A DNA stretch of 64,000 nucleotides. Source: Convolutriloba macropyga (taxonomy: Eukaryota). A program made the translations under genes and the position numbers. Below are positions 1 to 51,997 of the stretch, in pieces. Every line of letters begins with the position of its first letter. Positions within the stretch are counted from its first letter, which is position 1. Below the pieces are notes generated by a model, which had not been told where the DNA came from, did no database searches, and worked only from the letters and a program-made list of their open reading frames with translations. Location of the stretch: NCBI RefSeq assembly GCF_964194025.1, contig NC_134480.1, forward strand, positions 42,036,001 through 42,100,000, given 5' to 3'.

Positions 1-643
1 TTAACTCTTGTGTTCATAGTGTTAACAAAACTATCCATTTTGTGAACATATTTATCGTCGTTTTCCTCCATGTAGCGATATATAATGTTTTTTAAAGATC
101 TAATTGCTCTTTCTGCTACAGCAGTTTTTGTTTCACTTCTTGTAGAGTAGATTTTGATGTCTTTACTCTTGCAAAATTTTTTGAATTCTCCCCCGAACTC
201 AGTACCTTGATCATCCCACACTCTATCAGGTTTAGTGTTCTTCCTTAACATTTTTTTAAAGGCAGCTACAGCATCAGTGGCATATTTTTTTTACTTCATT
301 GATTGAACACGGACCAACCGAGAAAAGATGTCAACACATATCAATAAGTATTTCACACCGTTTTTAAATTCAGACATCTTATCCAAAAAAGCCAAATCAA
401 GACACCAAAACTCATTGATACGTTTTGCAAAAGCAGGTAATTTTTTGAAATGTCGAATCGCTTGTCGAAAATTAGCGTAAGAATTCTTTCTGTATAAAAA
501 TCAGTAACTTTCTTCTTTGACAACCCGCTAGCTTTCTAAAGTTTTTGAAGTGAACCATATGCGGCTTTTCCTTCCCTGTACAACCTCTGTAGCTTGGCTC
601 TTTCGGATTTGGAAAGGGTTCCAGCTCCCCCGTTTTTTGGCAT
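1..643 (-). pseudogene. Maverick retroviral-type (rve) integrase, disrupted, runs off the window start
   Basis: Manual translation: MPKNGGAGTLSKSERAKLQRLYREGKAAYGS...WCLDLAF...KYLLICVDIFSR...VWDDQGTEF...AERAIRSLK gives the D-D-E triad. There is an in-frame TAG and frameshifts. Confidence 0.9.
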
Positions 644-1010
644 CTTTGTTGAAAATTTTATGTGGATTTAAGCCAATTGCGTCAAGAAATGTGTAATAAA
701 TATCAGTACATTCAACGTTTTTCTTCTTCAAAGCGTATACAAAATCGACAAATGCGACGTTTTTATCTCTTCCGTCTAATAATATGGAATCAGAAAGGGA
801 TAGCTTAATGCGAGGAGAACTCAAAATTTCATTGATAAGTGATTCGTTGCTGGAAGACTTTGTTTTAACGTTAACTTTCTTATAATTAGTTTCTAAGTTT
901 TTTTGCAGCCGAATCCTGTTTTTCGTTATATTTGTCCAATCTTTGAGGTGATAACCTGATTTTTTGATCATAAAGTTATTGAGGAATTGAAACAAACTGA
1001 TCCATTTCAA
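528..1010 (-). pseudogene. Maverick hypothetical protein between the small basic ORF and integrase
   Basis: 160-aa ORF. The likely original start (MDQFVSIPQ*LY..., ATG at ~1005) is in another frame, so it is frameshifted. Tightly packed with its neighbours. Confidence 0.5.
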
Positions 1011-1309
1011 GAGAGACGATTAATGATTGAAGGAGTTAAAATTGATATAAGACTGATCCCTTTTTTGGAGCTCAGGATCTGTCTTCTTTTACTGAGACTA
1101 GTTCTTTTTAAAAAAGGCAGTTGATTTTCTTCTCTGAACTTTAAAATTTCTTGTTTTTGAATTTCTCTTAGCTCTCCTCTTAGAAGGTTTACTATGCACA
1201 CGTTTAGAAACTGGATGAAGTCTTTGGGGCAATATTTGAGGAAAGTTGTTTTGAAGCTCTGGGAATATTTCTGGAAAGCGATCAGAGTAGAGAGATGTTG
1301 TGTGCTCAT
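1007..1309 (-). CDS. Small basic protein of the type that follows the ATPase in Mavericks (putative virion core/membrane-active protein)
   Basis: 100 aa, K/R-rich, with FLNVCIVNLLRG...KRRQILSSKKGISLISILTPSII and an amphipathic C-terminus. Its start overlaps the ATPase stop. Confidence 0.65.
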   Translation of the reverse strand: MSTQHLSTLIAFQKYSQSFKTTFLKYCPKDFIQFLNVCIVNLLRGELREIQKQEILKFREENQLPFLKRTSLSKRRQILSSKKGISLISILTPSIINRLS

Positions 1310-1964
1310 CGTTCAAAAATGTAATCTGTTGCCTGCTTTGAGGTAGAAAAAAAAGATAGCGTTGAACCACTGTTAGTACAGTATCTTAGAGAGTCGACTG
1401 TTTCTGGAGTCAAGTCAATAAGTAAATGACCATAGGGAATTGAAGTTGCTGTGGTATACCAGTCTTTTAGTTGAGATCCCAATCCCAACTGTTGACTGAG
1501 CGTGTTTATTTGTAAGACGTCTCTGGGTGATTTGAATAAAACAATATGGGTGTTCTGTAGCTCAATATACCTTCCTATTGTCGGCTTTGATGAAAGAGAT
1601 TGTGCTTTATGTACACTGTACTTAAACTTTTATGTCTACCAGCGGTAGCTATTTTTACAAATTCTTTGGAACTAGAAATTTCTTCAAGAGGGTAATCAAA
1701 AATAAGGAAATACTTTCTTCCAATGTTAGGTAAATTCTCTATCAACTTGAAATCAACACCTTGAACGAACTCAATGTTTTTTATATTTTTTGACATTAGT
1801 CCGTAAAGAGATTGATAGTGTTGATAAAAATGGTAAATTTTTTCAAATTCTGGTTGAAAAGTTCCAAAAACTAACCAATCATGGATGAGATGAGATTTCC
1901 CGGATCCACTTGGTCCAACCAATGAATTAAAAACTCGTTATTTCGTGGAAATTGATTTGTTCAT
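1306..1964 (-). pseudogene. Maverick DNA-packaging ATPase (A32/FtsK-HerA-like), disrupted
   Basis: Walker A GPSGSGKS, degenerate Walker B FLIFDY, AGRH motif, HNLFHQ, then NTHIVLFKSPRD and PYGHLLIDL. Split over ORFs 1575-1922 and 1306-1488 in different frames. Confidence 0.92.
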
Positions 1965-2224
1965 ATTTTTGGAGAAGGTAAAATATATCCAACAGTACTC
2001 AACAAAATGGCGATCCAAACTGTTGTCTCCTCACAAGTGTCAGCTAATGTAAATCTTACGATACAGCAAGCTAGAATCAATAGTATGACAAAAAACTGGG
2101 ACAGAAAAACTACTAAAGACCGGTTACATGTCTGTCCAAAACATTTCCAAGATTGACGTTCTTGATTATTGTCATCAAAGACAAAATTACCTAATTGAAG
2201 TCCCTTATCAGTGTGATCAGTCAT
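1961..2224 (-). CDS. Small two-TM membrane protein (W-x-C...FLSQF...YILPSP type)
   Basis: Intact 87-aa ORF with two hydrophobic helices (LVVFLSQFFVILLILACCIV; VWIAILLSTVGYIL). Its stop overlaps the ATPase ATG. Confidence 0.7.
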   Translation of the reverse strand: MTDHTDKGLQLGNFVFDDNNQERQSWKCFGQTCNRSLVVFLSQFFVILLILACCIVRFTLADTCEETTVWIAILLSTVGYILPSPKI

Positions 2225-2243
2225 TTATACGCTATCTTATTCC

Positions 2244-2480
2244 CTAGGAATTAAGGAACTGTGCAACTGAATTGAAACGTAAACAACACAGAAATATGCC
2301 AAAAATTAACAAGAAGATAAGTGAACTTGACATAACACACAACCAAAAAATTGTTCCGTCCGAGGAATCAGTGAGAAAAAGCATCAAAATTGAAAAAAGT
2401 ACTAAACTTAGGATCAAGACTATGAAAGAATAATAAAGTATGGGAACACAGTATTTGTAGATATTTTTTAAACAACTCAT
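2244..2480 (-). CDS. Small two-TM membrane protein
   Basis: Intact 78-aa ORF, almost entirely two long hydrophobic segments separated by TDSSDGT. Its start overlaps the upstream stop. Confidence 0.55.
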   Translation of the reverse strand: MSCLKNIYKYCVPILYYSFIVLILSLVLFSILMLFLTDSSDGTIFWLCVMSSSLIFLLIFGIFLCCLRFNSVAQFLNS

Positions 2481-3016
2481 TCTCTAATACTAATTTCAGA
2501 GAAAAAAATTACGAATAAAAATGTTAAATTACAATCACGAATACAAACTTTAAATATTATCAAAAAATTCAAAGTCCATTTCTCATAACCGTATGTTTTC
2601 TTTTCTGCACAATGAAGAGTCTTCTTGTGTTGATACGTGTAGTTGCTGCAATTCCATTCAGCATCATCGTTTTCTAATAGTTTGGAAGCCTTCGGACAAC
2701 CAAGATCATCAAGATTTTCTACATCCTTACACAAGTAGGGTTAAAAAATTTTGCATTTTTCAAGTCCTTTAGCAAAGTACTCTGTTGTTGGTCAGCAATG
2801 CTGATGTATGATAAAAGCCAGCTCAGAATAATCAAGCTTTCCATGGTTTCAATTTATACCGTGCATATTTTTGGTATTCCATTTTGCTTGAAAAGTCGGT
2901 TTATGGACTTTAGGTGCGAGAAAACTGTATTCAAGTACGATTCCGTCCTTAAAGATTCCCAATTCTTTGACAAGTTTTCCTTCTAAGCATTCAATATCTT
3001 GTACAACGAGAGGCAT
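2477..3016 (-). pseudogene. DEDD-type 3'-5' exonuclease-like accessory protein, disrupted
   Basis: One frame with internal stops: MPLVVQDIECLEGKLVKELGIF...HGIN*NHGKLDY...YFAKGLEKC...VENLDDLGCP...HCA. Shows a DxE ExoI-like start and an HGI motif. Confidence 0.55.
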
Positions 3017-3037
3017 TCTTCCTTGTGGGATGATTTT

Positions 3038-3467
3038 TCAAAAAATGATCAACAGTCTAGCATTTTGAAAATACGTGGATGACACATTTTTATAAAGATA
3101 CAAAAGAACAGACAAGTAATGTGACCCAAGAGACATGAGCTTGGAATTTGAGGTAACATGTAACAACATGTAACAATAATCCGGTCGTTGGTTTGTAGTT
3201 GCTTTAACCGCTCCAGCAAAATCGTGTAGAAGTGCATGTAAATGAAACACTTTCGATCTTGCTATGAAAAAGTCCAGAATTGAATTACCGTAACCAATGA
3301 GTCCTCCGTGGGGGAAGTTTGGTCAATTTCCTCCAAATTAATGTTGGAATTCCAAATTTTACATGCAGCCAGAAAACAATTTTTTTACGTTTTTCGTTCT
3401 TGGGAAACATTGGAAAAATACTACTGTAACAATTAAAAATGTTTAAAAGTGTGACAATATCCATCAA
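3038..3467 (-). pseudogene. HD-motif accessory protein (possibly phospholipase A2-like), frameshifted
   Basis: Pieces from three overlapping ORFs: ...VFHLHALLHDFAGAVK...DYCYML...SCLLGHITCLFFC. Confidence 0.35.
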
Positions 3468-3476
3468 TTGTTTTCT

Positions 3477-3872
3477 TTATTTATCTAGAGTGATACTGGT
3501 CTTTTTGAAAGTCTCTACATAAGAAAGAAGGTCAGGAAGATGTTCCAATAATTTTTTGTATTCCTCTTTTTTTAGTTCCATTTTTGTCAAAAAACTCCAA
3601 TGAACTCCGTTCCAACGATGTTGTGAAATGGAAGTTTCTTGTTTTTCAGATTGATATATTAAAGAAGTGCGTCGAAATCCGTTATGAATAACCCACTTTA
3701 GTTCTGAAAAATTGGACTCACTGTCAAGTTTATCAATTTTGGGAAAATTTATAGCTTCAAGAACTGTATAAGAAGACTTTTTTAGTTCGTAGTGAAGTCT
3801 AACGTCGAATATTTTTGATTTATTTCATAGACTCAGAAAAATATTTCTGGAGGAACCAATATTCCAACTCAT
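3477..3872 (-). pseudogene. PC4/Sub1-like ssDNA-binding protein candidate (two half-domains), one internal TGA
   Basis: Manual translation MSWNIGSSRNIFLSL*NKSKIFDVRLHY...WSFLTKMELKKEEYKKLLEHLPDL. This resembles the PC4 beta-hairpin (FQIGKMRYVSV...IDIREY) and helix (ISLNPEQWSQLKEQI). Confidence 0.45.
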
Positions 3873-3945
3873 TTTCAGGTTGAAAAAAGGAAAAATGAAC
3901 AGAAGATATCAATTAAAAAGACAAATATATTACAAAATTACACAT

Positions 3946-4543
3946 TTAGTGAAATGTACATTGTTGAATATTAGAAAATTCTTTCAAATTTTGTATCAAC
4001 TCCTTGACATCATCCAGAGTGTAGCTGACATAAGTCACTTGTTTGAACTAGTTGTTCTCCTTTCGACGAAAGTCGAATTTGTACATAAGTTGAGTCTGGG
4101 TTGTTCTTGATGTATTGGAGGAAAGTAACATAGAGTCTGCGGTTTCGTCCAATGCTAATCTCTCTCACTTTGTGACACTGTTCCAGCACGTGTTCGATGC
4201 CTATGTTTTTGTCGAATTGAGGCTGGTTTCCTCTCATCTCTAGTTCTCCTTTGAGAAGATCTTCCTTGAGGAAGCAGAATTTTTGAAACTCATAGTCTCC
4301 AATTCGCAGTTGCCGGTACTTTTCAAAAGTCCCAGAATTGTCTTTTCTAAAGACTTGGAAGGTTGGTTCAGTTTAAATTTTTCCGTTTCTTGAAATCTGG
4401 AACACAGTAAATCTCCCAAGTCTTTTTGAATTGGAACCAAAGTCCATATAAAAAAGAACCGAATCAGTCGCTGGTTTTGGAGACGATTGAGTGTACCTTG
4501 AAGGAGCACTCGAAAGGAAAGGTGATACTTTAGAGAGAGACAT
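3946..4543 (-). pseudogene. Tandem PC4/Sub1-like ssDNA-binding protein candidate, disrupted
   Basis: ORFs 4373-4600 and 4010-4237 are the same frame. Reconstruction: MDFGSNSKRLGRFTVF...FQVFRKDNSGTFEKYRQLRIGDYEFQKF / ISIGRNRRLYVTF...YVQIRL(F)RRKENN*FKQVTYVSYTLDDVKELIQNL. Confidence 0.55.
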
Positions 4544-4620
4544 TTCAACAACTTGAGCAGAGAGTGAAAAACAAAATAAATGATTTGTATTTGTATGCAA
4601 TTCCTCTCAATAACTAAAAA

Positions 4621-4694
4621 TTTCCTTTTATGGTAATGACGTCATTTATACCCATAAAAGGTATGCTAAATGACGTTATTTCCTTATAGGGTAA
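4621..4694. promoter_or_regulatory. Divergent promoter with two inverted CArG boxes flanking a CRE, plus a second CRE/CArG-like pair
   Basis: CCTTTTATGG (4624-4633), TGACGTCA (4637-4644), CCATAAAAGG (4652-4661), TGACGTTA (4671-4678), CCTTATAGGG (4682-4691). Lies between divergent genes. Confidence 0.6.
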
Positions 4695-4990
4695 CTTAAT
4701 CGGAAATCTTAAGGTTGGCAAATATTTTAATCCGATTTTCAAAAGTTTCCTGGTTTTTAGCTCGTCTGTGTTGCATTAAAGGAAAATAGTGCTTGAAATA
4801 TTTTGAACAAGTATAACAACGAATTCTTTTTGTCTTCTGTTTCTTGAACTGTATCATTATGAAAATGATTTTTTAGCTTTTCATGGAAACAGAAATTGTT
4901 ACAGCTAAAAAGAGAAAATTAAGTTACCGTACTTTTTGTTTCCATAAATAGGTTCTATTCTGTTATCTCGATAGGGAAATTGCAGCAATA

Positions 4991-5580
4991 ATGTGTCAGG
5001 TTTTACCTCAATTTTTCAGAGATTATAATGACAAGACATTATTCCTTTCTGTATCAGTTAAGGAGTATAAACCTTATCTACTCACTAAAAATCACTCCGT
5101 TGCTACTCATAATGATAATTTTTGTCCATTAAAGACTTGTCGCTACCACATTATTCTCATTTCATCCTCAGTTAAAGAGATGTTAGAGACAATAGAAAAC
5201 TTGTCTCATTTTTTTCAAACAGTCGATTGCTTGTATACACTTGTATAAACGACAGTTGTTTTGGTTCCATTTTAGAAGAGTCAGGTGTGGTCTTTGCTCA
5301 GTTAACCAGAGCGGTGGAGCACAACTTGGAGAATAAGTACGTGGAAAAATCACCCAGTATCTCCAAAAAAAGATTGAGCAGAAAGAAGTTCAAGCGTCAT
5401 CTACTAAGCGCTGAGCAAAGAAATGCGAGTACTCAAACCCTTGGATCATCTTTCCTACATAGAATTCATTCCCTTAGAAACTCAAAGTATGAGAGTGAAC
5501 TTATAAAGATTGTTAATATTTTGTTAGATGGCCATGGCATAATTGATAATCCTCTTCTGTATCTTGAAATTAGAAAATAA
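4991..5580 (+). pseudogene. Maverick accessory hypothetical protein (frameshifted near 5230)
   Basis: Overlapping ORFs 4991-5248 and 5227-5580 join at VDCLYTCIN. Contains ATHNDNFCPLKTCRYHIIL and an NLS-like KKRLSRKKFKR. Confidence 0.5.
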
Positions 5581-5644
5581 CGTTATTAAATTCTTGTTTG
5601 TGTTTTGTGATTTGTAGTTGTCTGTATAATTTGAATTAACTGGT

Positions 5645-6080
5645 TGCTTAAAATCGATTTTATAAAAAACTTTTCTTATAAATTGAAAATTCAAACAACT
5701 TTTTTCTTAAAAATCGATAAAATTTTCAACGTTCTCCTAAAAATCGAAAATTTTTTCAACATTTCCTTTTAAATATAAAATTTTGGGTTATAAAAAAATT
5801 CTTAAATGTCGAATAAATTTTCAATATATGTCATTTAAAAACGCAAAAAATATTCATTTTTCTTCATTTTACGGTATGATATTGCGCAAAAAAAATTTTC
5901 TTCACATTTTAAAATGACAACTTTCGAACTTGTTTTGTTTTATTACATATCAATTTTCAAAACAAAGATTTCTATTAAAAATCGAAAAAAATTCAGTTAT
6001 TTGCATAAAAATCAATTTTTAAATCGACATTTTTGCTACGAAGCAGAATTTTAATCAAAGTAATTATAAAATTTTGACAA
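5645..6080. repeat. Degenerate AT-rich ~30-bp tandem repeat between convergent Maverick genes
   Basis: Recurring TAAAAATCGA/TTTTCAAC units, clearest at 5700-5770. Confidence 0.5.
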
Positions 6081-6202
6081 AAGTTGCTGTGCTTTTGCTT
6101 GAACAAAGCCTGCATAGTGTTTGGAGTAACGAAATAGTTCAACTTCAAAAGAAATGAATTAAAACACAAGTGAAAATACATCACAAAGTACTTTAAAGGA
6201 AT

Positions 6203-6916
6203 TCAAGTATAAAATTTACAAGTTTTAATTTCATTGCCAAATGAACGGACTCTTTCAACGATTGCTGGCGGTTCTGTAGGTCGAACACTGATGGGAGTTA
6301 TTGGAGCCTCATCCGTCAGCACAATAGGGTTGTGAGTTGCTCCGTCCTCTATGGAGGGGGTTGTCATTGACGGTTTAGTCGACATATCAGTCGAACCATA
6401 TTATTGAGCTGGATCGAAGTTTTCCAGATCGCTAAATGACCACGTGGTGCTAGTATCGACACTCAATTCGCTTTGTTCACTGCTGCCAGCATTGCTCACT
6501 ATCCGGAGAAGACTGTTTGGCGGCTCTGGACTGGATACTTGACTTGTCACTGGTGTATTTAACCAGTTGTTGGGAATCTGTCCTTCCTCACACGGAAGTA
6601 TGTACTGAATGCTTCCAGCACCGTAGTTGTCGGGAAAATCTGTTCCATATAAGTGAGGATAGTGATGTCCACTGATCACAGCAACTTCGTGACCCATTGC
6701 GTGAGTTCCAAGCTGATTCTCCGTGATTGGAAACTGTCCCTGATGATATGTGTCAAACTGTTGTCGCTGGTGCTCAATAATGTGCCACACTGTAATAGGC
6801 AGGGTTAGAATTGACTCGTAGAGCCCATTCGATAGGTCTCTGATGCTTATCCGAGCAGTCTCCTCTGTGAAAGAAACTGAGTAGAGAAGACTGTTGATCT
6901 GCTCTGTAAATTCCAC
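6203..6916 (-). pseudogene. Accessory protein: N-terminal PC4-like segment plus long S/T/P-rich disordered tail
   Basis: ORFs 6401-6916 and 6203-6385 are one frame separated by a single TAA. N-terminus YSVSFTEETARISIRDL...ILTLPITVWHIIEHQRQQFD. Higher GC than the flanks. Confidence 0.55.
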
Positions 6917-7062
6917 TTCTCAGTGTGGTGAGATGAGAAGAAGGATTAGAGTTAAAGTTAGTTGAGACAGAGGTGATGTTGTTTTAAGAGAAGAGAAAGC
7001 AAGTGATGTTGGATGAATTTTTCAGATCTATTTATACTAAACTCCAACCGATGAGAACAAAG

Positions 7063-7265
7063 TTTCCAAAAAGGGTAATGATTAGCAGAAAAAGTGACGT
7101 TATTATCCAGGAAAGGAAATGTATCAGTTGTAAAATTACCAAAGAAGGAATCAACTCATAGAAAATGTAACAATACTATCCGAAACGGGTAAGCTCAGTA
7201 CTGAATAGTGACCAAAAAAGGTAACTTTTACACGTGTTATCCTAATTAACAGCCAAAGATGGATA
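7063..7265. promoter_or_regulatory. Array of six CC-N6-GG (CArG-like) boxes with a CRE-like site, upstream of the 6203-6916 gene
   Basis: Boxes start at 7066, 7107, 7139, 7180, 7212 (perfect CCAAAAAAGG) and 7253, with spacing alternating 41/32 bp. TGACGTTA at 7095. Minus-strand TATAAATA at 7029-7036. Confidence 0.55.
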
Positions 7266-7267
7266 AG

Positions 7268-7902
7268 TTAGGGGAAATGAATTGATGTAATTGACCAAAA
7301 AAATAAGCTTTGATAATTTCTCTCCATCTCGTTAAATCTCAAATCGATCTCGGAAAGTTCTCCAAATTTGGAACTAAATTTTTGTATATAAATGTTGGGA
7401 AGTCGTATTCCAAATCGTACTCATACCCCCTCTGCATTGTAGTCCTTGTAATAATGAAAAAAAAGCGCACTCTGCAGAGATGAAGTAATTATTACTGGTT
7501 CAGTAATTGGGATCAAATTAGATTGAGTCAGATTTCTGTACTGTTCCATAATTTCTGGGACAGAATTCAATATGAAAAGCATTTCATACTTGTTGATGTG
7601 TAGTTCTGACGATAAATCGAAAGACATCAGACATGTTTTGTTATGCAGTCATCATACTAGAATTTTTTGATAGAGAAGGTTGCATATTCAAATCCTTTAC
7701 TAAATCGTATGATTCTGTTGTTTTGATTAAAAACATCCAAGATATTGTAAAAGAAATAAGAATCAACATCAATTTCATCTACTCTGTAAGCATCAGCGAT
7801 TTCTTCCTTTCTTTTGTAAATTTTTTCCAAAAGTTGTAAGTGATTCTTGATCAACCTTTTTTGCACAAATGAATACAGTATCAATAAAAACCCTGTTAAC
7901 AT
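7268..7902 (-). pseudogene. Degenerate accessory gene with tandem PC4-like pattern
   Basis: Fragments NRIIRFSKGFEYATFSIKKF...FDLSSELHINKYEMLFIL...VRFGIRLPNIYIQKF...SEIDLRFNEME, with stops and a frameshift. Confidence 0.35.
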
Positions 7903-8460
7903 AAAGGAAAATTAAAATAGAAAAAGCAATGCATAGAATGATATCGTTTATCTTGAGCATTAGATTTCTAAAGCTGAAGTCTGTTTGGAAGGGAAGTTCT
8001 ATTACAACAACTTTAAGTTGTACAACGTCCAATTTTTCCTCAATAACAGATGGAAATCTTTTCTTGATCTCTCTCTGATTGTTTTGAAAGCACATTTATG
8101 CGCTAGTTTCTATTTTCAATAAAACTAAATTTGATCTCAGACAGTAAATTTTATCAATATTTGAGATACACAATTTTGGACTACATCTATTCAAAATACT
8201 GTAACAATCGAAAATTTTTAAAGAGTAATGGTCTTGTTGTATTTTCTTTGGTGAAAAAATCTGTTTTCGAAAGGAAAAATTCAAGTAAAGGTTAACAAAT
8301 AAAAGTGAGAAGAAAATGAGAAAAGTTCGAATTTTTTGCCAGGGAACGATTTTGTACATTTAAACTGAAATTTAGTTAATTGTATGTAGATCTGTCTAAA
8401 TTGGAATCATATCAATCTTCTAGAGTGTTCTGTCATGACGCCTGAAACTAAAAGTAGAAA

Positions 8461-8494
8461 TGACGTCATTTCCATATATGGAAGTGATGAGTCA
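8461..8494. promoter_or_regulatory. Compact CRE-CArG-ETS-AP-1 module upstream of pPolB
   Basis: TGACGTCA (8461-8468), CCATATATGG (8472-8481), GGAAGT (8480-8485), TGAGTCA (8488-8494). About 120 bp before the pPolB ATG at 8614. Confidence 0.6.
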
Positions 8495-8613
8495 TCGTCG
8501 AGTAGCTTAAAGTTACATAGCAGCTTTTAATGATTATATTTTCTGTTTTTTCAGATTCAGTTGCTCCGCAATTTACCTCAATTTGACTCAATTCCTCTTG
8601 AACTAACATAACA

Positions 8614-11600
8614 ATGCCTGCTCTCGTTAGAAATCTTCCAGTGGAAAGCGCAAAGTGCAAAAAAATGGTTGCTAAACTAAACATGACCAGACGAACTAAA
8701 CATGACAAAAATCTTGTGATAATGGGACTTTATCTTGTCCCAAATTTTATAATTTTTATACAAAGAAGAAGGAAGACTTGAATTATCACCTTGCCAAGCA
8801 TCATGCCCCAAAAATTATGCAGCTTAGTACTGCGTGTACTGTGTGCTTGGAAAAATTCCCAAGCTTCTATTCTCTTCAACAACACAAGAGGAGAAAGCAT
8901 GGAACTTCTACAAAAGTTGGGATCAATTCGAGTGAAAAGCTCGAAGAAGTCCTATAATCAGAGGAACTAGACCAGAACAACAAGCAATTGCAGCAGGAAC
9001 TAAGTGCTTGCCAGCACTGTTTTGACGATACGGAAATGGAGAATGGGAGACATCGAGTGTTCAACTTCAAGTTGTCCAAGCTCAATCCCAATGAGGTCAA
9101 CGATAAATTAATAGAAGTTTTTGAAAAATTAAATTGCGCTGCCAAGGTGAATATAGCTCTTGGATTTATCTTGCGTAATGCGGACACAGATGAGTATCGA
9201 TACTTTTATGCACATGAGAACAACACATTTTTTGAAAAATCTCATTTGCTCTGCTGAAAAGGAGACTTTGTTTCATTTCAAGACAGAGTAGAGAAAATGG
9301 ATCTAGTGCAGACGTGTGCACAGGAGAGGGAACATACAAAGTGGCGATTTGCTTTAACTACTAAATTAACAATATTTTGCTGCGCTCTCTTAAAAAACAT
9401 TCCAATGGGATGTATCGATGCTGTTCTTCCTGAACAGTTACTTAGACGATCAGATGTGAATTATCTTGTATCAAATGGTTACGGCGAGACTTACAAAGAT
9501 TATCTTTGCCTGTTCAGAGCTATAGCTGTTCACTTGTATGGAACATCTGAGATGGAAACGAATGCAGCAAATTTGTTTAGTGCTTTTCTTCATGAATCTG
9601 GACATGACGCAATCAACTCAGGGGAGTACCAATTGATCACCTCGTGTTTGTTGAAAATGCGATAAAGCATAATATCTTTGTTTATGATATTTTTATAGAG
9701 GAAGGAGAATTTGTCGGAGAACTTGCGAGAAGAAGTGTTGAAATGTATGAGAAAAATTTTAATTTACTGCGATACAACAATCATATTTGCTACGTGGATG
9801 ATTCTAAAACATTCTTTAAACGATTCCGCTGTCTAAGTTGCGATACATTTATAAAGCACGCAAGTAATTTCAACCGTCACGTAAAATCTTGCAAAGACAG
9901 AGAACAGCATATTTACCCAAAGAGTGTGCATACTCTGCGAGAAACTTTGTTTGATAAACTCGATGGGTTTCGAATTTCTTACAACGATGATCAAAAATTG
10001 TTCAAAAACTTGGCTATTTTTGACTTTGAATCTACCTGCGTTCCCACTGATGAGCTAAAAGATACAAATACAACTACTTTGATTGGAAAACATGAGCCAA
10101 TATCCTGTCTCCATTTCCTCCAATTTGATTGAAGAACCTGTGTTTCTATGCGACAAAGACCATAAGAACTTGATTGTTTCTTTTGTCGAAGCTCTTGAGG
10201 AGTTAGCTAACAAGAGTAAAACTGAAATGCAAACAAAATTTGCATCAATTCAGGAGACAATCAATAGCCGAGTTAAAGCCAACTTTGAAAAATTGAACGA
10301 AAGGAAAGGTCACACAACTCCTGCATTTGATTTCGTAGATGAGTGTATTGAAGAGGAGGAGGAAGCTGATATGTCTACTCAGAAAAATTTATTTTTGGAC
10401 CTGCAACAACACTTTGAGCGTTATATCAACACATTACCTGTATTTGGATTCAACAGTGGAAAGTACGATTTGAATCTCATCAAATCTTACTTTCTACCTT
10501 GTCTCATTCACGAGCGGGATATTCAACCAACAGTTATCAAAAAGGCGAACCATTTTGTTTCCTTCAAGTTCGGTGACGTGCAGTTTCTCGACATTCTAAT
10601 TTTCCTAGGAGGAGCTACATCTCTCGATTCATTCCTCAAAGCTTACAAGACCAGCGAGACTAAAGGATTCTTCCCATATGAATGGTTCGATTCTTCAAAT
10701 AAACTTGACGCAACTTTTCTACCCCCTATGAGTGTTTCTGCAGTAAATTGAAGGATCATAACCCCTTGCAGAAAGAGTTCACTGATTTTACAAAATTACT
10801 GAACAGCAGACTATCTCAACAATAAGCCCTGAAAAAGTTGAGACAGGAAGACGTTCCCCCATCTGGAGTCGATAACTACAATTACTTGAAAGTGATTTGG
10901 GTGGAAGAGCAAGTGTCTACATTTAGAGATTTTGTCAAGTGGTACAACAACAAGGATGTTGTTCCAACACTGGAAGCAATGCAAAAAATGATGGAATTTT
11001 ACCACAAAAAAGGTATCGACATGTTAAAACTTGGATGTACACTTCCCAATTTAGCAAACATTTGTCTTCACAAGTCAACAAATCACAAGTTTTTCCGGTT
11101 TGTTGAAAGTGACAAGGATTTACATGATAAAATACGCGAGGACACGACTGGTGGACCTTCTATTGTTTTCACAAGAAAGGCAGTAGTTGATCAAACCTAC
11201 ATCAGGAATTCAGAAAATATATGTAAATCTATCGTGGGTATTGATGCTAGTCAACTCTATCCCTTTTCAATGTGTCAAGAAAAGCCAACAGGGCTTTACA
11301 CACAATGGCAGCTCGACACAAATTTTCAAAAATTCAAAGCTCGAACCAATAAACCTCGAACATTTGAGAACATGGTCATGTCTTATCTCCAATCACAACG
11401 CCCAGAATGCACAATTAAAAGCTATTATACAACCGGGAAACAGAAAAAGATTGACTGTTTTAGCGTGGACGGTTTTTGTGCTCGTTGCTACACAGTATTC
11501 GAAGCCATGGGTTGTTATTTCCATTTTTGCCCATGCCAAGAATCACAAGTTTTTCCGATTTGTTGAAAGTGACAAGGATTTACATGATAAAATACGCGAG

Positions 11601-13918
11601 GACATGACTGGTGGACCTTCTATTGTTTTCACAAGAAAGGCAGTAGTTGATCAAACCTACATCAGGAATTCAGAAAATATATGTAAATCTATCGTGGGTA
11701 TTGATGCTAGTCAACTCTATCCCTTTTCAATATGTCAAGAAATGCCGACAGGGCTTTACACACAATGGCAGCTCGACAAAAATTTTCAAAAATTCAAAGC
11801 TCGAACCAATAAACCTCGAACATTTGAGAACATGGTCATGTCTTATCTCCAATCACAACGCGCAGAATGCACAATTGAAAGCTATTATACAACCGGGAAA
11901 CAGAAAAAGATTGATTGTTTTAGCGTGGACGGTTTTTTGTGCTCGTTGCTACACAGTATTCGAAGCCATGGGTTGTTATTTCCATTTTTGCCCATGCCAA
12001 GAATCACAAGTTTTTCTGATTTGTTGAAAGTGACAAGGATTTACTTGATAAAATACGCGAGGACATGACTGGTGGACCTTTTATTGTTTTCACAAGAAAG
12101 GCAGTAGTTGATCAAACCTACATCAGGAATTCAGAAAATATATGTAAATCTATCGTGGGTATTGATGCTAGTCAACTCTATCCCTTTTCAATGTGTCAAG
12201 AAAAGCCAACAGGGCTTTACACACAATGGCAGCTCGACACAAATTTTCAAAAATTCAAAGCTCGAACCAATAAACCTCGAACATTTGAGAACATGGTCAT
12301 GTCTTATCTCCAATCACAACGCCCAGAATGCACAATTGAAAGCTATTATACAACCGGGAAACAGAAAAAGATTGACTGTTTTAGCGTGAACGGCTTTTGT
12401 GCTCATTGCTACACAGTATTCGAAGCCATGTGTTGTTATTTCCATTTTTGCCCATGCCAAGAATATCGAGCAAGCCTCTCGGAGGAGGAAATGCAGAGAG
12501 GAATCAGAAAAAGAGAACATGATGAACTGAGAAGAGATTATTTGAGAAACAAAAGATACAATATTGTTGAAGTCTGGGAGTGTAAATGGTGGGAAAGAGC
12601 TAAAGAAGAGGAAAATGTCAGAAATCACGTGAGGAAGAACTTTCCCTTCAAATTACCTATGAAGCAGGAGTCTCTTTTAGCGAAAATAAGAGATGGGAAA
12701 ATGTTTGGATATGTACAGTGCGTTCTCGAAGTTCCAGACGGATTAAAGTACAAGTTCTCTAATTTCCCTCCTATTTTTAAGAACTTTAATGTCACTCGAG
12801 CCGATATGGGAGATTATATGAGAGAGTATGCAATTGAAAACAACCTACTCAAACAACCTCAACAATATTGATTTCGAGCTTCAAGTTGGAAAATGGGACA
12901 ATCATTAATCCTTTACTCAACTTTTATCTCAGTCTTGGTCTGAAATGCACAAAAATATATAGATTTGTACAATACACGCCCAAAAAATGCCGTCAACAAT
13001 TTTGATCAGTCAGTGGTAGATGCTAGAAGAGCGGGTGATGAAAATCGATGCTAGAAGAGCGGGTGATGAAAATCCTGACTCTAGCGTTGTGGCTGAGACA
13101 AGGAAATTGTTGGGTAACAGCTCTTATTGATATCAAATTATGGACAGAAGTAGACACACAGAGACCAAGTACCTGAATGATGAGAAGACGCACAAAGCAA
13201 TCAATGGGAAAATGTTTAAACGTCTGAACAATGTGTCAAAAGAAGTTTACGAAGTTGAGCTTGCAGAACCCAAAATTGAGCATGGAGAACCTATAATGGT
13301 TGGGTTTTTTATACTTCAATACGCTAAGCTACGTATGTTGGAGCTCTATTACATTTTTTCGATAAATTTTGCGATGGTGACAAGTTTGAGGTGTTGGAAA
13401 TTGACACAGATTCTCTTTATTTAGCGCTAGTGCACGAGAACTTGTACGATTGCATTAGAACTGCTAAAGAGGAAGAATAGGAGACTTTGCGAGAGAAGGA
13501 CTGTGATGATTCCTTCAGAGCAGATGCCTCACACAACGTTTTCTCTAGAACATGTTGCTCAAAGCACAAGAAGCACGATAAAAGAGAGCCAGGACTCTTC
13601 AAAGAAGAATTCAGATGCACCGAAATGATTTGTCTCTGCAGTAAAACCTATTGCTGCTACGATGCCAAATCTGACAAGTACAAATTTAGTAGCAAAGGCT
13701 TGAACAAAAGAACTCTGGAGGAGACTGGAGATGGAGCAATGGAAAAATATCGACGAGTGATGGATGAAATTATCAACCTTACTTCGACAAACAGAGGGTT
13801 CAGAACAATAAATCATTGTGTTGCTACAAATGAACAGAGGAATGAAGGGCTGTCCTATTTCCATCCCAAACGAGTAGTTCTGGCTGACGGTATCCATACC
13901 GAAACCCTCAAATTGTAG
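8614..13918 (+). pseudogene. Protein-primed family B DNA polymerase (pPolB) with N-terminal C2H2 fingers, OTU-like domain and Vsr-like nuclease insertion; disrupted
   Basis: C2H2 (CTVCLEKFPSFYSLQQHKRRKH); OTU-like CLFRAIAVHLYG...YNNHICY; Exo I IFDFES, Exo II GFNSGKYD, Exo III YNNKDV; Pol A GIDASQLYP; Vsr-like VDGFC...FEAMGCYFH...VWECKW; Pol B KLLGNSSY; Pol C IDTDS; KTY. Many frameshifts and stops. Confidence 0.95.
11081..12464 (+). repeat. Tandem triplication (~460-bp unit) inside pPolB
   Basis: Units start AATCACAAGTTTTT at 11081, 11541 and 12002. Near-identical, with scattered substitutions. Confidence 0.95.
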
Positions 13919-15123
13919 AGTTTTTATCATAATTTTTCTTTTTGTTGTTTATTATCTGATATTTTTATTATTTTGTCTTTGTGATTTTTTAAACATATGC
14001 TTTATAATTTATACCTATTTAATGTAAATGTTCGAGTAATTTTGTAGCTTTGATGTGCATAACTTATACTGTGTCTGTTATTTATAACTTTTGCAATTCC
14101 ATTTTTTAAAAAACTGTCATTTTTAACCAAACAGAAAAGAGTATTTAGAAATTATTGAAAAAAAACTATAAACTGCTAACCAATCAGAAGAGAGTATTTA
14201 GAAATTATTGAAAAAAAAAACTATAAACTGCTAAAAAATAACATCCTTCTATTATTAATGGAGCGGATCCTAATTATCTAATCCAGTACGCGCGGATCAT
14301 TACTAGCCAAATTATTGACCCCGAACAGCTACTATGACGTAATTTTATCCCAAAAACAGAAAAATTTTGCAAAAAATTCTGCAAAAACTGCAAACAATCT
14401 GCAAAAAATACCGTAGATCCTATTCCTAATCTTAATACATATCAACGGCTATAACTATACTTCGACAAACAGAGGGTTCAGAACAATAAATCATTGTGTT
14501 GCTACAAATGAACAGACGAAGAAAGGGCTGTCCTTTTTCCATCCCAAACGAGTAGTTCTAGCTGACAGTATCCATACCGAAAACCTCAAATTGTAGAGTT
14601 TTTATCATAATTTTTTTTTTGTTGTTTATTATCTGATATTTTTATTATTTTGTCTTTTTGATTTTTTATAACTATGCTTTATAATTTATACCTATTAAAT
14701 GTAAATGTTCGAGTGATTTTGTAGTTTTGATGTGCATAACTTATACTGTGTCTGTTATTTATAACTTTTGCAATTCCATTTTTTAAAAAACTGTCATTTT
14801 TAACCAATCAGAAAAGAGTATTTAGAAATTATTGAAAAAAAAACTATAAACTGCTAACCAATCAGAAGAGAGTATTTAGAAATTATTGAAAAAAAAACTA
14901 TAAACTGCTAAAAAATAACATCCTTCTATTATTAATGGAGCGTATCCTAATTATCTAATCCAGTACGTGCGGATCATTACTAGCCAAATTATTGACCCCG
15001 AACAGCTACTATGACGTAATTTTATCCCAAAAACAGAAAAATTTTGCAAAAAATTCTGCAAAAACTGCAAAAAATACCGTAGATCCTATTCCTAATCTTA
15101 ATACATGTCAACGGCTATAACTA
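13780..15123 (+). repeat. Tandem duplication (~0.67-kb unit) of the pPolB 3' end and subterminal region
   Basis: TACTTCGACAAACAGAGGG at 13780 and 14458. Both copies end ...CAACGGCTATAACTA. Confidence 0.95.
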
Positions 15124-15367
15124 TTCCTAATACATGTCAGCGGCTATAACTAATCGTAATACATGGAGATTCTATTCCTATTCCTAATACATGGAGCCTG
15201 ATCTTAATACATCGAGCCTATACCCTATCTTAATACATGCAGGCGCCCCTAGATTCTATACCCAATCTTAATACATTAGGGAAGACCCTAATCGGTCAAA
15301 GCCGCTATAAACAATCTTAATACATGGGGTCTTCACCCCCGGGAGGGTCGCTCACCCTATTACTACT
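15075..15367. repeat. Maverick right terminal region (TIR) with reiterated TAATACAT motif
   Basis: About eight (C/T)TAATACAT copies, short GC hairpins (GGGGTCTTCACCCC; AGGGTCGCTCACCCT), then TACTACT. The inner TIR boundary cannot be fixed without the left end. Confidence 0.8.
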
Positions 15368-15384
15368 AATCCCAAATATTTTGG

Positions 15385-40679: not shown

Positions 40680-43600
40680 GTGATCCTACGACCCAGTGGA
40701 AACTTTCTCACTATAATGGCAACACATTACAGTGGCATGAGTGTTATGGCCAATTCAAAAGCTTGATTCACTCGCAATTACTCACTGAAAACGTTAAATT
40801 GATTTCCCTTTAAACTCTCGTCATTGTCAAAGCAAAGATCGCAATCACTGAGTTTGCTTACTGTGGATTATTGTACAAAGATAGACTAATGTTTGGCCAG
40901 CCACAAGTAGTTGTGAGAGCACACTTGGATAAATTAAAAGCAACTTTTGGCCTCCCAAAATGCCCAGTAGTGATAACAAAATAAACTATTCTGAAGCAAT
41001 ATCCAGCTTAGTTGGGGTTTTCAAGTCACTATTATATTACGCTGAATTGAACAGCGCTTCCGCAATTAATCAAGTGGTACAGAAGTTACCACCAAACATG
41101 AAAGAGTCTTGGAGGGACTTTACGGTAAAAAGCGCTGATTTAAAACAACTTTCTTGATTTTAGAGATTGGGTGATAGATAAAGCTTAGGCATACGATCTA
41201 TTGAAGCAAACTTTAGCGAAGGCAAAGACTGTTGATATTAACATTTCAGCAAACAAGCGCAACGTTGTCACGAAAGTATTCAATTGAATAACGCTACAAA
41301 GAAACCATGCAAACAAGTTTCGTCTTCCTTGACGCTAATTAACTTGTGTTGCCTGGTTTGTGAGGGCAATCACCCTTGTTGGAATGTAGAGTCTTCAAGG
41401 AGAAAACTCCCACACTGCGCAAAGTTAGTTTCCGAAAATAAACTTTGCTTCTTGTGCTTACGGGACAAGCAAAGTTTCTGCCATTGTCTACCAAGAACGT
41501 GCCCGCAGAGAGATGCAATAGTTCGCGTGAAACGCAATTGCATGGAGCAGATAGGATTTTCCCAAACAAACAGTCAGCAAATCCCAATACTTTAAGTTCT
41601 GGTAACACGGTTCAAAATAAATCAACTGCTAGTAAACAGCTGTCTAGTAAGGCCACAACGATGTCGTCTGTAACTGACATTAGGGGACTCTTTGATTTTG
41701 CGTGATACAGCCTGCAATAACTCTTGTGTCGCCGGTAGTCTCGTATAGAGACTCAGTTTGCACGGTAAAGCACTAAAACTAATTGTCAAGGGTATAAATA
41801 CCAAAGAAGTAGTTGACACTAACGTTGTTGAACAGAATTAAACCAAGAGAACATCAGGACTTCGACCCATTTTTCATCAATTTTTTCGTTAATGGGGGTA
41901 TTAAAAAGACCTATTACTGCAAAGAACAGGAGATGAAACTCTGAAACGATGTCTGTCATGCTATCTGCCCGTTAGAATACTTCTGTCGATGACAAGCGTT
42001 CACCCGTTGCTGTACGCTTACCCATAGGTAGGGTCTTAAGCGGTCTGTTACCATCGAGTTCCGGTTTAATCTCAGTGTGCTTCAAAGTGATTATTGAAGA
42101 ATACAATGAAATGGCAACCACGTAATTTCAAAATATGACATTGAATCGTTGGGAGCGAACAAACAGGTTGATTCACGATCTGCAGCAGAAGAAAGGTCTA
42201 ACGAAATTTTTGAGAATAGCGACGTACATAATGGCCTGAGGTACGACGTCGGAATGTTGTGGGCGGGAAACAAAATCAAGCTCCCATATAGTTACTTCTT
42301 CTCCCTTGTGAAACTTAAGTCTCTCAAAAACTGACTGGCAAGGATGAAGAATTTTGGGAGAACTACAATAGTACCAACAAGGAAGATTTACACGAAGGAT
42401 ACGTAATTATGTTTCCGGACGCTCACGAGGTTGAGAACTGGTCAGACAAAGAGTGGTATCTTCACCAACATTGTGTTGCAAAACCAAACAAGCCGGGTAA
42501 TTTGCGTAAAGTTTTCATTGGAACAACAAACTTTTACTGTGCTTCGTTGTATAAGTTCTTACTCACTGGCTTGATCTGCTCCAAAACGTCATTTATGTAC
42601 TTCTCAGCTTCTGACAGCAACCACATGCTGTGTCTGCTGACATCGAGGGAAAGATTCTACAAGGTGGCGTATTACCATCAGATCTACCACCAGTTCAATT
42701 CATATGACGGTTGGACCCCAACAATAAAGTTATAGCGTATCAAAATACGCGCCATTTTATATGGGATAAAAACTCACCTACCTTCGTCAAAAATGTATTA
42801 TAAGGCAGTGCTAGAGACAATGACAAGTTATAACCCGGGGCTGCAAAAGCTGTTCCTGAAAATTTTGCATGCTCGACTACCTTGACTTGGTGGAGTCACT
42901 TGAGAAAGCCAACAATAGACCAAAGGAAACGGCAAATCTTGGGTTCAAGCTGAATAAACTATTAAGAATTATGCCAAATCTGGCTGATCGAAAAGATGGT
43001 TCTCCTCAATCTACTGAGCCTCAGGTTGTTGTTTCATGCAAGGAAGATTCATCGCACGTGCTTGAGCTAATGTGGGACCACACTAGTGACACTTAAGTTG
43101 TAAGCAGGTACAAGGTTGGCTATTACAAAGGCACTATTGCAGCGCTTGATCCTAAGTGTTGCATCGAAGTTCTTTGGCAGCATATATATTTTTGCATCGT
43201 TTACTGTCTGTGCTCGAGTGCTCTTAAAAGACATTTGGCATGTCACAGGACAATATTAGGATAACGATTTCTCGCCAGACAAGGTTAAATGATTTTTGGT
43301 TCAGATTGCGGATTTACCGAAGCTTGAAAACATCTAAATCCCTCGCATTTATTTTTACAGGAGTCTTTGATTTTGTAGAATTGCATACACTCAGTGACAA
43401 TTCCAAGGATATTTTCAATGCCGTCGCATTCCTGCAAGCCTTAGGAGTAACAGCTCTTATGGGCGGGGAAAGCAGATCTGTGTTTGTAATGTGGAAAACG
43501 CGCGTGGCGCAAATGAAAGTAATGTCTGTCCCGAAACTGGAATTGCAAGAAGTTCTACTTGCCGCCCAGTTGAAAAACAAAATTATTCGGAAATTGACTG

Positions 43601-45010
43601 CAACGGTTAACCAAGTATTCATGTGGACAGGCAGCACGACTGTTCTTCAATGGATCAACTCTACTGAAATGCATCCAATGTTTGTTGCAAACCGCGTTTG
43701 CTATATTTTGGAGTATACCAGCGTTGACCAATGGAAGCACGCCGCAACTAACGATAATCCAGCTGATGGTGGCACGCGTTGAATGTCCGCTGAAGTCCTA
43801 AGCAGTTGGGTCATTGGTCCACATTTCTTAACGAATTCAAGTTTACGGTTCGTACCGAAGAAACACGTCATTTATAACATCACACTTGGCTCCAACAAAG
43901 CAACTTTTACAAAGACACTCACTTTCGGGCCACTTCTGTTACAAAACAGACAGCTCCTTTTTTTCGTTGTTAACATACAAAAATTTTAATTTTTATCAGA
44001 AATGTTTGCGTATTGCCGCGTACATTCTCAGACTTTCACCAAAACATGCTGGCTACAGTTACCTCAATTGTAGCATTACTAATCCCACTGAGCTTGACGA
44101 AGCCGAGCGTTATCTCAAATATTGGTTGCAAAAAGAGTCCTTTGAGACCGAAAGAAATCTGTTAATCGGAGTAGCCGCATCCAGGAGTTTATTGAAGATG
44201 GGTTTAACGTAAAGTACCCAATCATCTTAGATGCACGTCACCCGTTTGCAAAACTCTTTCTTGTACACATCAACGTGAAGCATTACCATCAGGGCGTTGA
44301 ATACATGAGATCAATTTTAAACGAAAAATACAGAATACTGAAACTAAGATCACCATTGCCCTCTATCAAAACCCACTTCCTGAGGTGCAAAAAATTTTAT
44401 GCTGTAACTATGCAACCAATCATTTTTGACTTAACTACGGAGAGATTTGCTTACCAGTTTCCTTCCTTCGAGAACAACGGCGTCGACTACATGGGACCGT
44501 TTTTCGAAACCGTCCGCCGTACTACTGAAAAAAGGTAGGGAGTCCTCTTCAAATGTCTTACATTTCGCGCCGTCCACGTTGAGATAGTTACCTTTTGTCT
44601 TGTGGAACGTGCCCTCAATTCGCGCCCTCCAACACCCGTAAACGCTGATCCCTTCGGCTTGAACGCTATAATGGCCAAAAAATTTTTTTAGGAGAATACT
44701 CTACCGGTATCCCGTCTCTTGCTCATCGTAAACATTGCGCCCGTGCGCTGTCGTACGCTAATGCGATCGGGTCCCGTTGGATCAAAGAGTATGTACCCAC
44801 ACTGAACCGACTTTCTCAGTGGCAGACGCCTGCCGCGAAACAGCTTACGTCCGGTGATTTGGTTTGGGTAGTTGAGGAAACAAACTGTAGTGGGGTTAAT
44901 GCCCTACCGCTCAGATTGTGGAACTCCGTTACAGCTCCGACAGCGTCGCGCGCTCCGCCATCTTACGTACATCGGCCGGTTCACTGGTCCGCGGGCTTGT
45001 AAAACTTGTA
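40680..45010 (+). pseudogene. BEL/Pao gag-pol remnants
   Basis: Gag FGQPQVVVRAHLDKL and Cys/His knuckles (CLVCEGNH; CFLCL); protease DTAC; RT WYLHQH...KPGNLRKVF, ADIEG; RNase H/A17 KTRVAQ...VPKLEL...FVANRV...NPADGGTR; integrase GVDYMGPF...RAVHVEIV...LNSRP; C-terminal RWIKEYVPTL. Confidence 0.9.
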
Positions 45011-47381: not shown

Positions 47382-47691
47382 TCATGGCGTCAAACATTTC
47401 AACGGACAACAAATTTGACATTGTGGGCTATTACATTTTTTCCAATGCTCGATAATTTTCCTCGAAGACGAACAGTGCGTAACCAGACACGTCTCTCCTT
47501 CTTGACATGTGTAGAGATGTTGCAACACACTTTTGATCGTTCCGCACATCGGCAGTTTGCAAAATTCTGCGGCAGTTTCACCGGGTTTTCCGTTCAACTT
47601 GGTACATTTATGAGCATGTAACAGCACAATTAACCGTTGCTGAATTTTTTTCTTGTCAACTAAAGATTTCCAAAACTGTTTCCTCTGCCAT
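47382..47691 (-). CDS. CBP/p300-type TAZ1 zinc finger, stand-alone (terminal exon, or frameshifted single-exon mini-gene)
   Basis: VDKKKIQQRLIVLLHAHKC...CKLPMC...HLYTCQEGETCLVTHCSSSRKIIEHWKKCNSPQCQICCPLK aligns by eye with p300 TAZ1, with all 12 HCCC ligands. A stop follows directly, and a minus-strand AATAAA lies at 47327-47332. Confidence 0.85.
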
Positions 47692-48471
47692 GTTAGAAAA
47701 ATGAAGCTAAAAAAGTAATTTTTAATACTTTCATAGAGATAGATAGGAATTAAGAGAGATTGATAGAACCACCTCTTTCACGTGCAAGTTCTATAGTGCC
47801 AGATTACCGCCATACCAAATTTTAGAATGCCACATTTTTTTACATACAGTGCCTGATTTGAAAAATACGAGTTCGCGTTTCAACCAATTTTGCCGGACTT
47901 TATTGCTAAAGTCAGTTTTAAATGCTGGATTATATCTCCGTAAGGATAACCACTGTAAGGATCTGGAATGATGCCAGATTTTCAAAGTGACTCCAACATG
48001 GTCGAGTGACCTACACTTATTTGGCCCTATAAACCATCAGCGGTATTATAACACTCAGAAGTTTGTTCAGGCTGGCTACCCAAGATTCGATTCCGCTCCC
48101 AAATTGTGGTTACGTTTGGGTCCCTTAACGTAGAGTAGAAAAAGACCCTTAGGCCAGACCTCGACCACAGCAAACAGACCGGATTAAAGTAGCATAAGTG
48201 CTTGCTCATTAAAACTTAAAATACCTGCTTTTCAAAAAGGCACAGAAAATGAAGCCTCTTGAATTCTTTTATAATCCGACTTTTTTAGGAGCAACGAACA
48301 CAAATCTGCAGTCAGAAAACCAGGGTCGAGGAAAAATTGGAAGAATATGTAAGATAAGCGGTGATAAGTTGTTTTTTTTTCACCGCAAATTTCGTACTTA
48401 ATTTTGCGGTGAAATTATGTAATTTCACCGCTATAATAAGCGGTGAACTTACAAAAATTGCCTGCATTTCA

Positions 48472-51500: not shown

Positions 51501-51556
51501 TTTACCTTCTGAACGTTTATTTTGATACCAGAAACTTCTAACCTTGTATGTATTTT

Positions 51557-51997
51557 GGATCTTTTCAGCAATTGCCTCCCTTTTGCAAAAAGGGGGCCTA
51601 TTTTTAAGCAGAATTCAAGCGAGTGATTTATTAACCAATCAGAGACGACTAAACTTTTTGTGTATGCTCATACTGTGTTAAACTGGATAGAATAAAATGC
51701 ACCATGCTAGGTAAATTAGCCTAATTGGAATACAAAGCGAAAAGAATTTCCGACTGGTGGGTCGGTGGGCGCGCCTCGCGCGGGTCGCGGCTTTGCTGCG
51801 ATAACCGACCCGCGATTTCCGAATTACATCCCACAGCGCGTGAGAGGCTTAGCCGTGAACAGCGGTCCGCAATCGCGCTTAATTTGATATTCGGCTATCA
51901 AACTGTAGGCCAACTAATATTGTGGTAAAGTATAGCACAAGGTGGTGGCGATTCACTAATAGGTACCAAGGGGGGGGGGGAATTGTTGAAAAGATCC
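51557..51997. mobile_element. Longer non-autonomous element with GGATCTTTTC TIRs
   Basis: GGATCTTTTCAGCAATTGCCTCCC / GGGGGGAATTGTTGAAAAGATCC, flanked by ATGTATTTT/ATGATTTTT. CpG-rich core at 51750-51880. Confidence 0.75.

Follow-up and report, generated by a model that had tools for sequence, protein, structure and literature searches.

The major immediate-early (MIE) enhancer of human cytomegalovirus (HCMV) combines cAMP response elements (CREs) with AP-1 sites and one for SRF; CREB and AP-1 act in reactivation from latency (PMC7690695). In the cellular EGR1 promoter, several SRF sites are found with a CRE and AP-1 (PMC9634628). Among integrated viral elements, SRF activates the long terminal repeats (LTRs) of MERVL (PMC11960700), and the LTR of human T-lymphotropic virus 1 (HTLV-1) is driven by CREB at repeated CREs (PMC2734550). 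The homologous regions (hrs) of baculoviruses consist of ~72-bp units with 30-bp palindromes, between which CREs or TPA response elements (TREs) are interspersed, and enhance early promoters together with the viral protein IE1 (PMC13513840). Activation by giant viruses has been proposed for animal Mavericks (PMC8097293). Here, a decayed Maverick/Polinton is described that lies in a 64,000-nucleotide stretch of the Convolutriloba macropyga genome (contig NC_134480.1, positions 42,036,001 to 42,100,000; hereafter the window). With animal Mavericks and adintoviruses it shares the polymerase, integrase, ATPase and accessory genes upstream of the polymerase (PMC8097293, PMC8502044); the available passages of PMC8502044 and PMC8097293 hold no promoter code (0 matches and 2 unrelated matches for 'promoter'). 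Three promoter regions of the element, facing the polymerase and four accessory genes (A to D), carry CArG-type boxes and CREs in a fixed arrangement. These are probably, with some reservation, a shared early-promoter module that would be read by a host SRF-type MADS dimer and CREB/ATF.

All ten CC-N6-GG boxes listed in a preliminary description of this DNA are present at their reported positions (Table 1), and its four perfect CC(A/T)6GG boxes (4624, 4652, 7212 and 8472) were confirmed. Among the other six, four have one G/C in the core, one has two and one has three; eight of the ten, with at most one G/C, have an SRF-type CArG core if a single deviation is tolerated. TGACGT(C/T)A, said to occur in each region, was found at 4637, 4671, 7095 and 8461, and TGAGTCA (AP-1) at 8488. 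The gene map supplied the limits of the intergenic regions, which were revised after P0241, a relative of gene D, put the end of that gene at ~7242. Nine of the ten boxes are intergenic as described; box 7253 is not, because P0241 aligns down to 7245, and falls in the final codons of gene D. The analysis added an eleventh box, a perfect one at 7362 that the preliminary description lacks; it too is inside gene D.

Enrichment over a shuffled background had been set as a check and was borne out for boxes, CREs and composites alike. Against dinucleotide shuffles (n=3,000) of the three promoter-side regions (1,021 bp in total), nine boxes were observed for 0.54 expected, four perfect boxes for 0.055, four CREs for 0.033 and four CRE-linker-box composites for 0.00, none of these counts being reached in any shuffle. 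Two 3'-side regions (1,164 bp) hold neither boxes nor CREs, the box expectation there being merely 0.14. The coding sequence of the element (12,096 bp) contains 12 boxes, two of them perfect, and no CRE; the left arm with integrase and ATPase (1-3945) has five scattered boxes and neither a CRE nor a composite. The six-base spacer is specific: counted in the uncorrected regions, N6 occurs 11 times, N5 three times, N7 twice and every other length from 2 to 12 not at all. In the whole window, perfect boxes are mildly enriched (10 vs 4.46; 3/100 shuffles) and the CRE pattern has 13 strand matches for 3.2 expected (0/100). Six boxes within 200 bp were matched in one of 200 whole-window block shuffles, and the composite, present four times in the window, in none of 200. 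The motif signal is local.

Every CRE (4/4) has a box next to it, separated by an A/T linker that measures 3 bp in three cases and 4 bp in one, the longer linker joining CRE 7095-7102 to box 7107, and both strands are used. The complete dyad, including its far half, stands beside all four CREs, for which the chance is ~2e-7. An SRF-type site comprises a CArG core and A/T flanks over 16 bp, with deviations of one base usually tolerated (PMC10178880). The TT(A/T)CC-like flanks attributed to the boxes were recovered at 11 of 20 half-sites, compared with 10 of 108 background half-sites elsewhere (p=1e-5), giving the 16-bp form with A/T flanks. By sequence, the proposed assignment to SRF/MADS-type sites fits in both core and flanks. 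For the 14-mer at 8470-8483, identity with a published mouse Srf motif was considered, but a literature search gave no paper to confirm it, and it carries no weight here. No MEF2-type site was found.

The wider proposal of a CArG+ETS+CRE+AP-1 code stands for multiple SRF sites with CREs, fails for a separate ETS site and, for AP-1, fails outside the polymerase promoter. ETS-like 7-mers number four for 0.6 expected, of which three overlap box flanks and the fourth (4701) is ~10 bp from box 4682; because three of the four are box flanks, a canonical ETS part is not supported. The two AP-1 sites (8488 and 8584; 0.19 expected, 49/3,000 shuffles) are restricted to the polymerase promoter. A different host factor might read only the GG(A/T)AA half beside the CRE, as an ETS-CRE or NFAT/Rel-bZIP pair, with the CArG appearance being secondary. 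In two of four composites GGAA lies one base from the CRE, in the register of a human ETS-CRE motif (PMC3464117), and ETS 5-mers are in excess (13 vs 6.0; 10/3,000 shuffles). However, the conserved 11-mer given in the available part of PMC3464117 occurs in none of the four composites, one of which has GGTAA and one of which is a base longer. With the far half exactly 6 bp away in all four, and most boxes lacking an adjoining CRE, such a half-site reader is improbable.

The boxes of promoter 2 are spaced at 41/32/41/32/41 bp, a period of 73 bp in which 41 and 32 bp equal 4 and 3 helical turns. At 10.4 bp per turn the array boxes fall at 3.94, 7.02, 10.96, 14.04 and 17.98 turns, a phasing equalled by 4 of 20,000 random spacings in a post hoc test. 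The composite, the phasing and the TATA box at 7030-7037 do not feature in the preliminary description. Because the 73-bp period matches the unit length of baculovirus hrs, the element-encoded dimer, given there as an alternative, gains weight. A virus-encoded dimer, supplied by the element or by a helper virus, would then bind the 16-bp dyads together with a host bZIP at the CREs in an hr-like enhancer, and the array might in addition be a signal for replication. The ~72-bp hr units with their palindromes, interspersed CRE/TRE and synergy with IE1 (PMC13513840) resemble the array and the one CRE of promoter 2. Induction of mavirus through a helper-virus promoter motif (bioRxiv 068312) also favours this explanation, as do the apparent lineage restriction of the module and gene C, which is predicted by modelling to join a fold that forms dimers to an acidic tail and has the strongest array in front of it. 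However, hrs are recognisable repeats with 30-bp palindromes, whereas the Maverick array has 16-bp CArG-type dyads with a free A/T core, two per unit, and diverged spacers, and the folds predicted for the element are those of single-strand binders. Pur-alpha- and PC4-type folds are, to our knowledge, not readers of double-stranded DNA dyads. Papillomavirus E2 sites have an A before CC and a G after it; here, A precedes CC in 8/20 half-sites (33/108 in the background) and CCG occurs in 1/20 (21/108), and this pattern was rejected. A protein-primed polymerase is not expected to use an internal origin, which counts against the replication signal. Overall, an hr-like enhancer, though the strongest of the competing readings, is unlikely.

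A lag of 73 is the best self-match of the array and drops out of the top eight lags once the boxes are masked, so the boxes are better kept than the spacers. A simple tandem-repeat origin of the array was rejected: none was found by TRF, and masking gives no support. This bears on the possibility of a non-functional relic, formed by an old internal duplication of a short sequence and by chance in A/T-rich DNA. A 42-bp inverted match (79%) links promoters 1 and 3, array units 1 and 2 share some spacer words by eye, and the copy is decayed. Yet, by the masked lag test, the similarity is confined to the motifs, which stand solely 5' of genes and in both orientations, with a correctly placed TATA box. 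Chance is excluded by the shuffles, and the relic leaves position and spacing unexplained, making it very improbable.

Conservation of the module was assessed indirectly, in four of six listed sequencing runs, two of which gave 2,574 and 3,508 aligned contigs. In favour of the module read by host SRF-type and CREB/ATF factors, contigs of 13-15% divergence cross the complete six-box array with 4-10 gap letters; coding pieces do no better. Two further runs, one of them labelled with a second organism, cover promoter 1 at 5.6-6.0% difference (among 32 listed of 6,738 pieces). In three contigs from each of two runs of the same study, 8322-8447 (126 bp) is replaced and the motif block 8448-8559/8633 aligns. 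Several observations, however, weigh against this module and its host readers. Of 887 variant places, 40 were listed; that none of these 40 falls within the 199 motif bases is too little to bear out conservation at base level (P=0.15). In run X5, a piece of intergenic DNA outside the promoters (6.1% difference) is conserved to the same degree as that of promoter 1 (5.6%). The 80% likeness threshold selects for pieces that align, and in one contig 8340-8545, all of promoter 3, is skipped. The boxes of promoter 1 are out of phase (2.7 and 5.6 turns). Because the copy is dead, erosion may have altered some boxes and accident produced others, and two of the ten carry more than one G/C (two and three) in the core. 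The flank letters cited in the available part of PMC10178880 are those of plant MADS proteins; for SRF it states A/T-rich flanks without letters. The left part of the element, outside the window, could encode a reader of the module.

Also on this side of the balance are distant loci from metagenome and genome scans (49 + 2, at 21-60% polymerase identity; 260,618 bp, mostly short, with 32 loci of at least 3 kb). None of the 51 carries the composite, and extended boxes number two; 12 upstream stretches from 11 of these loci were examined directly. With 51 distant Maverick loci lacking the composite, the module looks lineage-restricted, and the attribution to 'Maverick promoters' in general was too wide. 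Three protein queries found no relative among viral contigs. The single exact-composite match there lies inside an open reading frame (ORF) on a phage-like contig; the boxes listed for that contig include no second composite, and the match was dismissed as chance. Two contaminated prokaryote assemblies yielded polymerase pieces only. Gene-dense Polinton-like contigs with open polymerase frames were seen in L018 (1-14327) and L022 (1-12801); L017 and L018 share the word TAAATAAATGG at gene starts, a different promoter type.

Table 1. Positions of promoter motifs, genes and other features of the Maverick in the window.
Feature	Position	Strand	Remarks
Maverick/Polinton, decayed, right part	1..15368		rve, A32 ATPase and PolB2 pieces (all weak); end position approximate
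Integrase, broken, cut at window edge	3..500	-	PF00665, E=0.0032
Packaging ATPase, two frames	1306..1937	-	PF04665, E=0.012; Walker A visible
Accessory gene A, broken	3946..4543	-	26 relatives; family predicted to have a Pur-alpha repeats I-II fold
Promoter 1	4621..4636		Perfect CArG box 4624-4633, TTT/TAA flanks
Promoter 1, perfect CRE	4637..4644		3 bp from box 4624; minus-strand TATAAATG (4651-4644) touching the CRE
Promoter 1	4652..4661		Perfect CArG box
Promoter 1	4671..4694	+	CRE variant TGACGTTA, 3-bp linker, box 4682-4691 (one G in core)
Accessory gene B, broken	4952..5580	+	ORF pieces, frames; true start may be nearer 4730
Accessory gene C	6203..6916	-	243 aa in relatives (143 relatives)
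Promoter 2, TATA box TATAAATA	7030..7037	-	On the gene C strand, 29 bp downstream from the array
Promoter 2	7063..7265		Six boxes (7066, 7107, 7139, 7180, 7212, 7253); CRE variant 7095-7102
Accessory gene D, broken by stops and frameshifts	7242..8359	-	P0241 aligned over 8071-7245; start uncertain
Promoter 3 (polymerase)	8461..8494	+	CRE 8461-8468, 3-bp linker, perfect CArG 8472-8481, AP-1 8488-8494
Protein-primed DNA polymerase B, N-terminal zinc fingers, broken	8614..13918	+	ATG 8614
CRE-like TGACGTAA and imperfect box-like stretch, right end	14335..14366	+	Second copy at 15012 via the 677-bp duplication

The window covers only the right part of the Maverick, with the left end beyond the window edge and an ACTACT end motif at 15362. 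The hallmarks of membership, a protein-primed PolB, an rve integrase and a packaging ATPase, are all present, the PF00665 and PF04665 matches being broken pieces that are both below the curated cut-offs. The polymerase is damaged by stops, frameshifts and a 460-bp triplication; its match to PF03175 is weak in the window (E=0.016), and close relatives carry PF03175. The family is large (462 polymerase relatives), with the best 120 of the 462 at 64-89% identity. The three 460-bp copies inside the polymerase (11081-12464) are 97% alike and represent a real duplication or an assembly artefact. At 13934-15075, a 677-bp duplication takes in the end of the polymerase gene and some of the right terminal region; the TGACGTAA sites in it (14335, 15012) were rejected as composites, the box-like stretch being imperfect and the composite pattern not fitted. 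Two small genes, phospholipase-A2-like (3038-3322, minus strand) and exonuclease-like (2849-3037, minus strand), were seen by eye and have no significant family match.

Regarding the accessory genes, neither the family of gene A nor that of gene C has a Pfam match, and gene B has no significant Pfam or PHROG match. Although gene A has no sequence match to solved structures, the model of its relative P0245 (predicted local distance difference test, pLDDT, 81.8) is similar to 3k44, with Z 13.1 (next 9.2), a root-mean-square deviation of 3.7 over 140 aligned positions and a Foldseek E-value of 2e-4, and the family is likely to bind single-stranded DNA. Gene C is predicted to have a PUR/PC4-like N-terminal repeat followed by an acidic Ser/Thr-rich tail of low confidence (mean pLDDT 39.8, ~68 over residues 1-40; Z 7.0 to Pur-alpha repeat III, a weak match). 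Both are predicted candidate single-strand DNA binders of the Maverick lineage; the term 'PC4' has no match in the available text of the Maverick papers searched. An idea by eye that the genes at 3477-3824 and 7242-8359 are PC4-like gained no support from profile comparison. A fold alone shows no function, but with a protein-primed polymerase nearby, folds of single-strand binders suggest genes of a replication or early class; polymerase and accessory genes are likely to form an early, non-structural class. No Pfam match to MADS or bZIP families was obtained in 31 ORF pieces of the element or in the relatives scanned, nor a match to a DNA-binding family in the element ORFs of the window.

Elsewhere in the window, a TAZ zinc finger (47382-47777, minus strand; PF02135, E=2e-15) was found in what by eye is a CBP/p300-like host exon. 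Decayed LTR-retrotransposon-like frames lie at ~41000-45000 and 57000-64000, which we take, by eye, to be BEL/Pao-like and Gypsy-like, respectively; those at 57000-64000 show a strong strand skew and a 690-bp duplication. Short elements at 23303-23468, 27230-27395 and 51556-51998, with 25-27-bp inverted ends and inward-facing terminal C/G runs, are likely miniature transposons. Runs of N at ~29650-29850 and 30930-31110 mark assembly gaps, around which there is a 1.3-kb duplication.

In the favoured reading, a host SRF-type MADS dimer would bind the boxes, and a CREB/ATF dimer would bind the adjoining CRE and cooperate with it across the linker. RNA polymerase II would start behind the TATA box at 7037-7030, and the polymerase and accessory genes, as an early non-structural class, would be switched on without a viral factor. 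If host factors do bind, a response to signals (wound, MAPK, cAMP) and activity in a single cell type are about equally probable. The lineage could then be a host-signal-inducible endogenous virus, using the CREB-SRF composite and the phased SRF array as an immediate-early switch without a helper virus; wounding, growth-factor or cAMP signals would turn on the polymerase and the Pur-alpha-like proteins. Constitutive or tissue-specific expression likewise comes from SRF and CREB sites, and the signal switch is therefore regarded as conceivable but rather doubtful.

In its action the module would resemble enhancers by which host factors drive viral early genes. The HCMV MIE enhancer likewise combines SRF, CREB and AP-1 sites in a virus, yet is one long enhancer that serves a single locus and includes an ELK-1 site and NF-kB, whereas the Maverick module, known here by its sequence, is short, stands at three promoters, is rich in SRF sites and has a fixed CRE-box linker. 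The c-fos promoter has SRF sites with a CRE and AP-1, and its serum response elements (SREs) use TCF/Elk-1. EGR1 and c-fos are similar in their CRE with multiple SRF sites and differ in having SREs with TCF/Elk-1, whereas the Maverick boxes have no separate ETS site beside them. MERVL and HTLV-1 could be analogous as integrated viral elements with an SRF- or CREB-driven promoter, but these are retroviral LTRs with one promoter, and the available passages of PMC11960700 and PMC2734550 hold no CRE-CArG composite. The preliminary interpretation is thus upheld for promoter-side SRF-type boxes with CREs and for a factor set like that of HCMV MIE and EGR1, and not for a c-fos-type element. The surprise is limited, because control of viral early promoters by SRF, CREB and AP-1 is known from herpesviruses, retroviruses and baculoviruses. 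No CRE-CArG composite or Maverick promoter code was found among the literature matches listed, which were mostly open-access main texts, so that annotations in supplements could bear on this; the fixed 3-bp CRE-CArG linker would also amount to a type of bZIP-MADS composite for which the literature searched gave no example. For the Mavericks, such a cis-code before the replication genes would point to host signalling instead of a giant-virus trigger, and the module gives short probes and named host factors with which the trigger of Maverick activation may be approached.

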